In this document: positions 14,047 through 18,033 of the stretch, in pieces
Numbering within the stretch: the stretch's first letter is position 1
Layout of the letters: every line of letters begins with the position of its first letter
NCBI GenBank assembly: GCA_947623305.1
Contig: CANQGQ010000008.1
Location: 13,434-77,433 of the forward strand
Length of the DNA: 64,000 nucleotides
From: an uncultured Alistipes sp.
Lineage (GTDB): Bacteria > Bacteroidota > Bacteroidia > Bacteroidales > Rikenellaceae
Reading direction: 5' to 3'
The notes under the pieces: model-generated
Databases searched by the model: none
What the model was told of the DNA's origin: nothing
Seen by the model: only the letters and a program-made list of their open reading frames with translations
Position numbers and translations under genes: made by a program

Positions 14047-14307
14047 TTACTCGGCTAACGGAGTTACGCTGACATAGGAGCGGCCTTCGCGTTTTTTGCA
14101 GAACGAAACCGTCCCGTCGACCAAGGCGAAGAGCGTATGGTCTTTGCCCATGCCGACATTCTCGCCGGCATTGTGAACCGTGCCGCGCTGACGGACGATG
14201 ATGTTGCCCGCCTTTGCGAACTGGCCGCCGAACAATTTGATGCCGAGCCGTTTGCTTTCCGACTCACGGCCGTTCTTCGAACTACCTACACCTTTCTTGT
14301 GTGCCAT
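14047..14307 (-). CDS. rpmA: 50S ribosomal protein L27
   Basis: [31 protein letters not shown]. Confidence 0.98.
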
Positions 14308-14327: not shown

Positions 14328-14639
14328 TTATGCAACGATTTCTTCCACAAGAATCTGGGTCAGCGCCTGCCGGTGTCCGTTGCATTTCTGGTATCCCGTG
14401 CGGCGTTTTTTCTTGAACACCAAGACTTTGTCGTCTTTCAAGTGTTTCAGAATCTTGCATTTTACCGTGGCGCCTTCTACTACAGGTGCGCCGACTTTGA
14501 CCTGACCGTCGTTGTCTGCGAGCAGGACACGGTCGAAACTTACGGACGAATTTTCGTCGCCCTGGAGACGGTGGACATAAAGTTTCCGACCTTTTTCAGC
14601 CTTGAATTGCTGACCTGCAATCTCTACTATTACGTACAT
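14328..14639 (-). CDS. rplU: 50S ribosomal protein L21
   Basis: [29 protein letters not shown]. Confidence 0.97.
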
Positions 14640-14679
14640 TTGAAATCGTTACCGGTATTTGAACCGGTGTTTCGGGTTG

Positions 14680-14687
14680 CAAATATA
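14680..14687 (-). promoter_or_regulatory. -7 promoter element of rplU-rpmA
   Basis: TATATTTG on the minus strand, 40 nt upstream of the rplU start. Confidence 0.6.
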
Positions 14688-14807: not shown

Positions 14808-15179
14808 ATGCATCGTCGTATATTGATTGTTGCCGAAGAGCCGTTCGTGCGCGATGTCGTTCGGCTATCGTTGGTCGGATTGGGCGCCGAGGTGCGCTGC
14901 ACGTCCGACTGCGAGGGGATGCGTGCATCGTGCCGCCGCGCGACCTTCGATTTGATTATCGTCTTGCAGGCGGCGATGTTTTTGTGCGGCGGCAATCCCG
15001 TGCGTGAAGTACGGCCCGCCGGTCTGCGGCATCCTGCGATCTATGTGCTGTCGTGGCAGCAGGCCGAGCAGACGGTGCTGAGCCTTCTGGAAGCGGGCGT
15101 CGACCAGTATATGACTTTTCCGGTGAATCTGCAACGGTTGCGCCGCAAAGTGGCCGACGAACTCGACCGACGATTGTGA
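14808..15179 (+). CDS. Stand-alone atypical receiver domain (pseudo-receiver)
   Basis: CheY-like pattern ILIVAEE...DLIIVL...IYVLS...AGVDQYMTFP. Phospho-acceptor Asp and the conserved Lys are absent. GGAGG precedes ATG 14808. Confidence 0.75.
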   Translation: MHRRILIVAEEPFVRDVVRLSLVGLGAEVRCTSDCEGMRASCRRATFDLIIVLQAAMFLCGGNPVREVRPAGLRHPAIYVLSWQQAEQTVLSLLEAGVDQYMTFPVNLQRLRRKVADELDRRL

Positions 15180-15184
15180 ACCCG

Positions 15185-16129
15185 ATGACCGATACGCTCT
15201 ATAAAATTTATACGGTTCTCGCGCTCGCTGTAGCGTGTGCGCTGTCGGTGGGCACCTTGTTCGCCGCCTTGCGCGAACGCCGCCGGCGGGGGCACGATGC
15301 GATTCTGCGGGCCAAGTATCTGCATGCGTTGATGCTGGCATTGAGCGGCGACGAAGGGCGGATGCCCTATTTCCCGCTTTTCGGCCATTACGGCACCCGG
15401 CTGTTGTTGTGCGAAACCATCGCGGGTCTCGTGTCGATCACCTATGGATTGAACACTGCGCTGTTGCGGCACGCGATCGACCGCTACGGGCTCGATCGCT
15501 GGATGCTGCGGCATGTCCGTCGATGCCGAGGCTACCGGCGGGCGCGGACATTGGCTCTGCTCGCGTGTTTGCCCTCCGATGAGACGATGGCTGCGGCCGT
15601 CGTCCCGTATCTTCGGAGCCGGAACCGTTATGTCCGCTTTTACGCATTGACGGTGCAGTTGGCCGCCGATCCGGCGCACGCCTTGCGGTACATCGAATCG
15701 TATCCCAGCCCGTTGGCGGCTTCGGAAGTGGCGGAATTGATGGCTTTGCTGCGGCGCGGCATCCTGCCGGTCGCTTACGGGCCGTTGCTGGAATCGCGTT
15801 CGCTCAATCTGCGCAGGGTCGGATTGGCCATTGTCCGGCAGTTCGGCATCGAGGAGGCCGAAGGCCGGTTGTTGCAATTCGTGGCCGACTCCTCCGAACC
15901 TGAACTCGGACGGGAAGCCCTCTATGCGCTGTGTTCGTTGCGGTGTTCCCTGCTGCGGCGCGAGGTCGCCGTTTTCATCACGGGGATGGATCTTCGGGAG
16001 CGCCGGGCGCTGTTGCGCTGCATGGCGCTCGAAGGCTATGCCCTGAACACGATGCAGCGGCTGTTCGAAGACGACGAACGGCCCTATTACGAAACGCTCG
16101 TGCAATCCTATAAACGTTCGTTGGCATGA
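15185..16129 (+). CDS. Membrane-anchored HEAT/ARM-repeat-like protein
   Basis: N-terminal TM helix, then helical repeats (RRARTLALL, PYLRSRNRYVRFYAL, LLESRSLNLRRVGLAI). ATG 15185. Confidence 0.6.
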   Translation: MTDTLYKIYTVLALAVACALSVGTLFAALRERRRRGHDAILRAKYLHALMLALSGDEGRMPYFPLFGHYGTRLLLCETIAGLVSITYGLNTALLRHAIDRYGLDRWMLRHVRRCRGYRRARTLALLACLPSDETMAAAVVPYLRSRNRYVRFYALTVQLAADPAHALRYIESYPSPLAASEVAELMALLRRGILPVAYGPLLESRSLNLRRVGLAIVRQFGIEEAEGRLLQFVADSSEPELGREALYALCSLRCSLLRREVAVFITGMDLRERRALLRCMALEGYALNTMQRLFEDDERPYYETLVQSYKRSLA

Positions 16130-17073
16130 AAGTCGTCTTGTTGCTTCTGTTGTGCAGCGTCGGTGCAGCCGCCTGCCTCGTTTTGCGGTTGGTTCTTCGG
16201 GGTCGGGACAAACGGTTGCTGCTCCGGGATGCGCACGGCATCGGCAGCAGTCTGTCGGAGGAGATCGGCATTTCGGTGCTGTGCAGCGGCATTGATACGC
16301 CCGAACGGATCGACGCACTGTTGGGTTCGGAATATACCCGTTTCGAAGTGATCGTCGTGCTCGACGCAGGCGGATTCCCCGAGGAGTTCGCCCATTTGTC
16401 GGCTCGCTATCGGATGATTCGGGTCGAATGGCACGGTTCGCAGGAGTTTCCGACGGCGGGCATCCGTTCGTTGTGGCGTTCCCGACGGCGGAGTTGCCGG
16501 CGGTTGGTGCTGGTCGACCGTCCGCAAAGAGCGGGCGGAACGGCTGCGGAATCGTCCGTTGCCGATTGGAATGCAGCCGCTTCCGTAGCGGCCTACGATT
16601 ATCTGCTTCCGTTGGACGGGCGAACGGCCTTATTGCCCGATGCCGTGATGCGGTTGGTAGCGGAGTTGGGCGAACATCCGGCCGGTGCGGTCGATGTCGT
16701 GCGGTCGCACATCGGGATACCGGTGGCGTTGATTGCCCGCGACGTCGTGATGGAGGCCGGCGGCTTCGGAAAGCGGTTGCTGCGGCAGATTCCGCGACGG
16801 AAGCGGCTGGAGCTGTGGGAACCGTTGGCCGGTCGGGCCGATCGGACGGATGCGGCGAAACGGGCCCGGGTGGAAAAGTTGGTGCTTCGGGCGGCGGTGA
16901 TCGTGGCGTTCATCGTTACGGGATGGGCCGCCGTGGCGGGCTATTGGACGGGAGCGGCCGTAACGGCTACGGTGGCGGTCGTCGCAGGGGCCGCGGCTTA
17001 TGGGCGGCAGGCGCTGGCACCCAATAGGGAAGTTGCTTATTTAGGGAGGAGATCGAATAAAGGTGATTCGTAA
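16126..17073 (+). CDS. Degenerate GT2-like membrane protein
   Basis: N-terminal TM, FEVIVVLD, LVLVD, WNAAASVAAYDYLLPLDG, RDVVMEAGGF, two C-terminal TMs. No DxD, TED or QxxRW. ATGA overlap with the upstream gene. Confidence 0.6.
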   Translation: MKVVLLLLLCSVGAAACLVLRLVLRGRDKRLLLRDAHGIGSSLSEEIGISVLCSGIDTPERIDALLGSEYTRFEVIVVLDAGGFPEEFAHLSARYRMIRVEWHGSQEFPTAGIRSLWRSRRRSCRRLVLVDRPQRAGGTAAESSVADWNAAASVAAYDYLLPLDGRTALLPDAVMRLVAELGEHPAGAVDVVRSHIGIPVALIARDVVMEAGGFGKRLLRQIPRRKRLELWEPLAGRADRTDAAKRARVEKLVLRAAVIVAFIVTGWAAVAGYWTGAAVTATVAVVAGAAAYGRQALAPNREVAYLGRRSNKGDS

Positions 17074-17187
17074 CGTTCGATAGAAAGACGACCCCTTAAT
17101 ATTTGTGTTAAAAAATTCACAATATCGCAAAAATATAGTACCTTTACCATGACAACCGAGACTACGGAATACCAAATACGCACGACG

Positions 17188-18033
17188 ATGATAAACGACG
17201 AGGTGAAAACTTATCTGTTGCCGCCCCTGTTCAATGCGGCGGTACGGGCCGGCGGCGCCATCATGAAGGTCTACAAGCATTTCGACGATTACGACATCAG
17301 CATGAAGGACGACAAGACCCCGATCACGGTGGCCGATCGTCAGGCTCATCGGGCCATCCGCGAGTATCTGGGCCGTACGCGGATTCCGGTGCTTTCGGAG
17401 GAGGGGCGCGCGATGCGTTACGAGGAACGCCGCAACTGGGAGCTCTATTGGTTGGTCGATCCGCTCGACGGTACGGTCGAGTTCATCAAGGGCAACAACG
17501 AATTTACGGTCAACATCGCCTTGATGGAGAACAACATCTGCATCGGGGCGGTCATCTACGTGCCCTATTTCGAGAAGATGTACGTCGCCTGGCGGGGAAG
17601 CGGGTCTTTCCTCAAAGAAGGCGTTCCGGCCGACGCCGACGCCGAATACGATTACGCCGGCATCCACGAGGCGTGCCGTCGGCTACCGCTCGTCGACGAA
17701 CCGGCTCGCGATCACCTGATCGTCGCCGTGTCTCGGTCGCATCAGACGCCAGAGACGCATGCGCATATCGACCGGTTGCGCCAGCAACGGGGCGATGTGG
17801 AGGTGGTGGAGCAGGGCAGCTCCTACAAATTCTGCCTTTTGGCCGAAGGCAAGGTCGACTATTACGTCCGTACGACGCAGACCTACGAATGGGACACGGC
17901 GGCCGGCGAGCTGATCCTTTCCGAGGCGGGCGGACACGTCGAATCGCTGCCCGATGGCCGTGCATTGCGTTACAACGAAGCGGATTTGCACAATCCGTGG
18001 TTCGTGTGCCGGTCGAAATTTTGCAAATTGTAG
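17188..18033 (+). CDS. cysQ: 3'(2'),5'-bisphosphate nucleotidase CysQ
   Basis: PITVADR, LSEEG, WLVDPLDGTVEF, WDTAAG motifs. The start may be 17149 or 17188. Confidence 0.9.
   Translation: MINDEVKTYLLPPLFNAAVRAGGAIMKVYKHFDDYDISMKDDKTPITVADRQAHRAIREYLGRTRIPVLSEEGRAMRYEERRNWELYWLVDPLDGTVEFIKGNNEFTVNIALMENNICIGAVIYVPYFEKMYVAWRGSGSFLKEGVPADADAEYDYAGIHEACRRLPLVDEPARDHLIVAVSRSHQTPETHAHIDRLRQQRGDVEVVEQGSSYKFCLLAEGKVDYYVRTTQTYEWDTAAGELILSEAGGHVESLPDGRALRYNEADLHNPWFVCRSKFCKL

Follow-up and report, generated by a model that had tools for sequence, protein, structure and literature searches.

Can an operon whose signaling and enzymatic partners have both lost their chemistry still be under selection, and for what? 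The question is raised by three adjacent genes in a 64,000-nucleotide stretch of DNA from an uncultured Alistipes species (hereafter the window), which encode a stand-alone response-regulator receiver, a HEAT-like repeat protein, and a protein resembling family 2 glycosyltransferases (GT2). An initial annotation, made from the sequence alone, had proposed that this trio is a repurposed scaffold or sensor complex. On balance, we favor the reading that the trio forms a phosphorylation-independent, non-catalytic complex at the cytoplasmic face of the inner membrane. Sequence comparison indicates that the trio has lost both active centers along with the membrane channel and the outer-membrane barrel, and that the three genes are tightly and conservedly coupled, being present or absent as a unit.

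We compared the trio with the module from which it appears to descend. The initial annotation had pointed to operons combining a receiver, a HEAT protein and a GT2, with or without a YaiO-type barrel, as putative exopolysaccharide systems of other Bacteroidota, and such operons do occur in other Bacteroidales. Homologues of the canonical HEAT protein are present in 38 of 301 Bacteroidales genomes, and our survey of the canonical module covered 20 loci carrying one; the module was seen in loci L028 and L085–L104. Fourteen of the 20 combine a stand-alone receiver of ~121 amino acids (aa), the HEAT protein and a GT2 in one operon. A YaiO/TPR barrel is part of 11 of these 14 operons; L088, L092 and L100 lack the barrel and share the gene order of the window. 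The HEAT protein used as query is a 431-aa HEAT_2 protein with a transmembrane (TM) helix, from a genome of another Bacteroidales family that also encodes a TPR/YaiO barrel (PF19413, E = 5e-34) and a 475-aa PgaC-like GT2 in which VNDGS, NGGKADALNAG, DAD, GEDMEL and QRNRW are all present. Every catalytic residue is intact in the canonical receivers and GT2s (DxD, GEDMEL, QRNRW for the latter): the phospho-acceptor aspartate is found in 14/14 operon receivers, together with the E/D-D pair, T/S and K109. We found no publication on the receiver–HEAT–GT2 module or on its degenerate form. Three canonical loci (L090, L095 and L097) contain extra receiver-containing open reading frames (ORFs) of 245–445 aa just upstream of the stand-alone receiver, which are possible phosphorelay components of active systems.

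The Alistipes trio resembles this uncharacterized Bacteroidales operon in its gene order, its stand-alone receiver (~121–124 aa), the N-terminal TM helix of its HEAT protein, and the Y(K/R)S...RRLxV(I/V)D hairpin and GGY/F motif of its glycosyltransferase. It differs in that DD, D, T/S and K are all present in the canonical receivers, most canonical loci have the outer-membrane barrel, and the canonical GT2s run to ~475 aa with PAYNE, DGSxD, NGGKAD, DxD, GEDMEL, QRNRW and channel helices, as against 315 aa in the window.

The window receiver still belongs to its family, matching Pfam Response_reg (PF00072) at 31.6 bits (cut-off 30.2) over residues 5–115 and matching receiver chains in the PDB down to E = 7.5e-6. 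Its phosphorylation pocket is another matter. Alignment to YycF and CheY bears out the annotated loss of the phospho-acceptor aspartate and the conserved lysine: leucine occupies the D57 position (DLIIVL versus DLILLD) and phenylalanine the K109 position (TFP versus TKP), the acidic pair DD reads A-E-E, and serine is found at the Thr/Ser position. The erosion extends across the Rikenellaceae. Among the 27 aligned orthologues, 23 have L, V, I, Q, S, H, G or T in place of D57; position 109 is always hydrophobic (F, L, M or Y), and the acidic pair is eroded, with non-acidic residues in many. The conserved part of the receiver is instead the α4-β5-α5 region (VLSLLExGVDQYxTFP...RLRxK). Pseudo-receivers and aspartate-less receivers have reportedly been surveyed in print. 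By published definition, a pseudo-receiver (PsR) lacks at least one of five pocket residues and an aspartate-less receiver (ALR) lacks the D site (PMC12632262). Without D, K and part of DD, the window receiver is by its sequence both a PsR and an ALR. It shares with these proteins a receiver fold devoid of the phospho-acceptor and other pocket residues, and differs as a stand-alone ALR whose gene is fixed in one operon with those of a HEAT protein and a dead GT2, an arrangement for which we found no publication. Aspartate stands at the phospho-acceptor position in a single group of loci (L024, L026, L027 and L029), in which the HEAT protein is also shorter (~250–270 aa) and the GT-like protein lacks its C-terminal TM hairpin.

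The GT-like protein presents a recognizable fold around a dismantled active site. It scores 22.3 bits against Pfam Glycos_transf_2 (PF00535), below the cut-off of 23.3 and over residues 148–206 only, and 10.2 bits against TIGR03937, whose cut-off is 422. Searching PDB chain sequences with the protein and with its profile gave no usable match, and only a fold search succeeded. The AlphaFold2 (AF2) model (predicted local distance difference test score, pLDDT, 82.7) comprises an N-terminal TM helix, a reduced GT-A core at about residues 47–238, and a C-terminal two-helix hairpin at 241–297. Foldseek pairs it with hyaluronan synthases, SpsA and WrtF, its best PDB matches, and with BcsA, at probability 1.0, E = 3e-6 to 1e-3, and TM-scores of 0.4–0.5 normalized to the query.

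Column-by-column comparison of 20 canonical with 28 degenerate glycosyltransferases located what was kept and what was lost. The degenerate proteins retain GISV, YxRYEVIxVxD, LYRSRxRxYRRLVVVD, VASYDY and GGF, of which the basic hairpin LYRSRxRxYRRLVVVD is the best-conserved element held in common with active enzymes. They lack PAYNE, DGSxD, NGGKAD, DxD, canonical block 201–258, GEDMEL, QRNRW and the channel helices. In the window protein, LDGR aligns with the canonical VDAD (DxD) at a position that is unconserved among orthologues, and the GEDMEL base, QRNRW and C-terminal channel helices have no counterpart. Fold and motif table together thus agree with the annotated picture of a GT2-like protein that keeps its fold, has DGR for DxD, lacks TED and QxxRW, and is shortened in its C-terminal half. 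Lengths fall from ~475 aa in canonical enzymes to 351–435 aa in other Rikenellaceae genera and 219–350 aa in Alistipes. Judged by its sequence, the protein is a GT-A pseudoenzyme that falls outside the processive GT2 synthases in family membership and in every catalytic feature. Many GT-like orthologues (L014–L016, L020–L021, L048–L053, L059) end in a KNF(x)xS-like C-terminus that aligns with the canonical C-terminal ...GF; the window protein and its closest relatives lack this motif and end in ...RRSNKGDS.

Might such a protein nevertheless remain an enzyme? Metal-independent GT-A enzymes exist, and a cluster of six arginines (R114, R118, R120, R122, R125 and R126, five of them invariant) is conserved along with D80 and D131. 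These arginines could stand in for the DxD-bound metal, in which case the trio would glycosylate a lipid or protein acceptor at the cytoplasmic face. The GT-A core is also kept under purifying selection, with a ratio of nonsynonymous to synonymous substitution rates (dN/dS) of 0.23, and in four other genera an Asp still stands where the catalytic ED motif would be. However, the Arg-rich hairpin coexists with an intact DxD in canonical enzymes and is therefore no replacement for the metal site. Alistipes proteins are missing NGGKAD, a ~58-residue block (canonical 201–258), the GEDMEL base and the acceptor-binding QRNRW; their DxD position drifts and the Pfam GT2 score lies under its cut-off. 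Because acceptor and base elements are deleted and the hairpin accompanies DxD in active enzymes, residual catalysis is quite improbable.

The third component was annotated as a HEAT-like protein with one N-terminal TM helix, and modeling agrees. The window protein has no Pfam match of its own, and 8 of its 121 orthologues match Pfam HEAT_2. Its AF2 model (pLDDT 89.3) is an all-helical α-solenoid behind a single long N-terminal helix, and the best PDB matches of the model are ARM and alphaRep repeat proteins. On this model, the protein is a HEAT/ARM-like solenoid anchored by a single membrane pass. Basic stretches follow the N-terminal TM helices of both membrane proteins (RERRRR in the HEAT-like protein, RGRDKR in the GT-like protein), and the solenoid and the GT-A domain are therefore predicted to be cytoplasmic, in the same compartment as the soluble pseudo-receiver.

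Profile comparisons tie each component to its canonical counterpart. Pairwise BLASTP between the HEAT-like protein and one canonical HEAT protein was not significant, and homology emerged only with profiles: hhalign against the canonical operon HEAT proteins returned a probability of 96.4% and E = 1.2e-9 over 240 collinear columns from the TM helix on, and the HEAT-like profile matches the canonical L028 HEAT protein at 1e-8. The GT-like protein aligns to residues 78–236 of the canonical PgaC-like GT2 P0123 (E = 4e-10), with which it has in common an unusual hairpin (YKSKKHVHRRLTVID / WRSRRRSCRRLVLVD). The pseudo-GT profile matches canonical GT2s at 1e-20 to 4e-25, and the best HMMER-scored match of the canonical GT2 in the window genome is the pseudo-GT. 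With the pseudo-receiver profile, canonical receivers from these operons reach 67–78 bits, versus at most 56.5 bits for other receivers of its own genome. Sequence profiles thus indicate that all three window proteins are homologous to parts of the canonical module. At a different locus, L057, in another Rikenellaceae genus (genome G160), a HEAT-like ORF lies beside a canonical-type GT2 that shares 37% identity with P0123 and has AEDMDM and QRIRW, and the neighbors have no Pfam match; both active-type and degenerate versions therefore occur within the Rikenellaceae.

Nothing in the genome supplies the missing parts. The search for a YaiO barrel suggested by the initial annotation, run with PF19413 and a positive E. 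coli control, found none in the window's genome or in 24 other Alistipes genomes. A canonical synthase was likewise absent from the Alistipes genomes searched, and outside the trio the window genome yielded neither a canonical GT2 nor a canonical HEAT or YaiO gene. By gene content, the trio lacks the active synthase and outer-membrane porin that define Pga-like synthase-dependent exopolysaccharide secretion. It resembles the PgaABCD/IcaADBC systems for poly-β-1,6-GlcNAc through its ancestry, in the PgaC-like GT2 (P0123 versus TIGR03937, E = 5e-38) and the PgaA-like TPR-plus-barrel porin, and differs in having no PgaB, PgaD, c-di-GMP element, porin or catalytic motifs. P0123 itself scores 131 bits against the 422-bit TIGR03937 cut-off, so even the ancestor would not be a PgaC equivalog. 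Two further roles were considered and rejected. The trio might have regulated a second, canonical copy of the synthase, HEAT or YaiO gene, but no such copy was found in the genome. For anti-phage defense, PADLOC returned a generic receiver-domain match only (PD-T4-6, E = 4e-5) and nothing for the HEAT-like or GT-like protein.

How widely, and how faithfully, is the degenerate trio kept? It occupies the same position, between rpmA–rplU and a cysQ-type phosphatase gene, in 9 Rikenellaceae genera, and is found there in 16 of 24 sampled Alistipes species. Profile searches recovered all three genes side by side, in one constant order, at 27/27 loci from these genera, and the arrangement in the window is therefore more than chance. 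The junctions are correspondingly tight. As annotated, the window holds three intact ORFs, divergent from rplU, with 5 nt between the receiver and HEAT-like genes (15180–15184) and a 4-nt ATGA overlap between the HEAT-like and GT-like genes. Across 28 loci, the receiver and HEAT genes overlap by 4 nt in 19, and the HEAT and GT genes lie within 16 nt of each other in 26.

Loss follows the same unit. The GT-like gene is missing from 18 of 37 sampled Alistipes species, and at all eight trio-less Alistipes loci examined (L105–L112) the three genes are gone together, with rplU and cysQ kept 215–290 bp apart. When the trio-less intergenic DNA is aligned to the trio-bearing locus L013, the match on the rplU side stops ~20–100 bp short of the start of the receiver gene, and on the cysQ side it picks up again 8 bp past the GT stop. 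By these alignments, the trio has been cleanly excised as a unit, leaving the upstream region before cysQ. That region, retained directly 5′ of cysQ in trio-less Alistipes, suggests that cysQ is served by the same promoter region from which the trio is transcribed in genomes that have it. Such joint retention or loss is the pattern expected for components of a single machine with a conditionally dispensable role.

To gauge selection, we calculated dN/dS by the Nei–Gojobori method between the window and the four closest of six metagenomic relatives, at unsaturated dS of 0.2–0.33. Values were 0.01–0.04 for the receiver, 0.09–0.11 for the HEAT-like gene and 0.18–0.29 for the GT-like gene, alongside 0.08–0.13 for cysQ and 0.02–0.04 for yebC, two neighbors used as controls. 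Bootstrap 95% upper bounds were at most 0.39 for close pairs and 0.52 for any pair tested, and no frameshift or internal stop interrupts the trio ORFs in 27 orthologous loci. These rates indicate purifying selection at the amino-acid level on all three genes, the outcome that the initial annotation had named as support for function.

A decaying operon is ruled out by the low dN/dS and the intact frames. A subtler version holds that the trio is a functionless relic, its frames kept open solely by the polar effect that nonsense mutations would have on cysQ. Lost catalytic sites, barrel and channel, repeated deletion within Alistipes and accelerated evolution would all suit it, as would the failure to find a terminator-like site after position 17073, between the GT-like gene and cysQ, in a scan that is uninformative for this phylum. 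Yet polarity selects against stop codons only, and cannot produce dN/dS of 0.01–0.29 with upper limits within 0.52, a receiver as constrained as yebC, specific motifs conserved across 9 genera, or 27 loci free of frameshifts and stops. We consider the relic very improbable.

Constraint on the receiver also bears on a sensor model, in which the pseudo-GT, reduced to its nucleotide-binding half, would detect a UDP-sugar or nucleotide, and the HEAT-like protein and pseudo-receiver would pass its occupancy on to a further target, which would make the trio a ligand-sensing form of the non-catalytic complex. What is conserved is indeed the N-terminal Rossmann-like half (GISV...YEVIxVxD...VVVD), most orthologues retain the equivalent of the uracil-contacting Asp (D80), and the strongest constraint falls on the receiver, as expected of an output adaptor. 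The phosphate- and metal-binding elements (GK motif and DxD), by contrast, are gone, and this model seems unlikely.

We return, then, to the non-catalytic complex at the inner membrane. In this proposal, the trio would be a reduced descendant of the Bacteroidales receiver–HEAT–GT2 polysaccharide-synthase module that has lost polymer synthesis, export and phosphorylation switching. Since the conserved elements lie outside the pocket residues, the preserved property is proposed to be protein–protein assembly: the three proteins may still bind one another, the pseudo-receiver through its α4-β5-α5 region and the pseudo-GT through its family-specific basic hairpin. Selection would preserve the assembly as a scaffold, adaptor or ligand sensor, possibly of nucleotide sugars, for an envelope or regulatory process that may be dispensable in some lineages.

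Several observations pull the other way. The trio was lost at least two and up to five times within Alistipes on the cysQ tree, and its function must therefore be non-essential. The GT C-terminal hairpin is nearly relaxed (dN/dS 0.63). D80, the first Asp of the nucleotide-binding half, is mostly conserved, and nucleotide binding is thus possible. The Alistipes subclade comprising L024, L026, L027 and L029 retains Asp57, but without DD or K. Finally, the GT-like protein evolves 3–5 times faster than canonical GT2s, as seen in its longer tree branches. The same tree splits canonical from degenerate GTs on a 99/99-supported branch, and the split and the longer degenerate branches together fit a single ancestral degeneration followed by faster but constrained evolution. 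More tentatively, and short of an even chance in our estimate, a whole switch–adaptor–enzyme module may have turned into a pseudoenzyme complex in an ancestor of much of the Rikenellaceae, with two unrelated active sites dying together while the assembly stayed selected.

Non-catalytic glycosyltransferase folds have precedent in streptococcal GtfB, the partner of the active GtfA. The two cases would be alike in keeping a GT fold for a protein–protein function after catalysis was lost; GtfB, however, has a GT-B fold and assists an active paralogue, whereas the fold here is GT-A and the genome holds no active partner synthase. Pseudoenzymes also usually turn up singly, whereas the trio would be an entire operon without chemistry, conserved across a family prominent in the mammalian gut. 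It would then amount to a natural separation-of-function experiment for the receiver–HEAT–GT2 module, in which the remaining function belongs to the assembly and not to the polymer. If so, a second job that does not depend on the polymer would fall to the assembly at the inner membrane, for instance organizing or regulating another envelope process, and the same job could exist, hidden, in the widespread active systems. Annotation pipelines currently name the proteins 'hypothetical' or would name them 'response regulator' and 'glycosyltransferase', and the latter two labels would mislead predictions of metabolism or glycans in Alistipes. Comparison is eased by natural trio-less relatives and by the cultured carriers A. 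timonensis DSM 25383, A. muris DSM 112343 and A. montrealensis kh20.

Features of the trio and its surroundings, in window coordinates
Feature	Coordinates	Strand	Length	Description	Basis
Receiver ORF	14808-15179	+	123 aa	Stand-alone, intact	Pfam Response_reg
HEAT-like ORF	15185-16129	+	314 aa	Intact	AF2 solenoid and profile homology
GT-like ORF	16126-17073	+	315 aa	Intact	AF2 GT-A fold and Foldseek
rplU	14328-14639	-		Divergent neighbor of the trio; marker of conserved syntenic position	
rpmA	14047-14307			Beside rplU	
cysQ-type gene, inositol-phosphatase family	17149-18033	+		75 nt downstream of the GT-like ORF	Inositol_P (Pfam) on orthologues
Candidate Bacteroidota -7 promoter motif, TACATTTG	14635-14642	+		In the rplU/receiver divergent region	Pattern match only
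Second candidate -7 motif copy, TATATTTG	14680-14687	-		Would serve rplU	Pattern match only

The cysQ-type gene is the constant 3′ neighbor of the trio across the Rikenellaceae. It is possibly co-transcribed with the trio, and we treat it as context outside the module. No sigma-70 type promoter was found upstream of the trio, in a scan uninformative for this phylum. In composition, the trio stands out from its flanks (GC 0.62–0.64 versus 0.53–0.58), with a stronger positive GC skew of up to 0.18 over 15000–17000 of the window. Long antisense ORFs overlie the trio, for example one of 425 aa at 15041–16318 on the minus strand, and look like a by-product of this composition.

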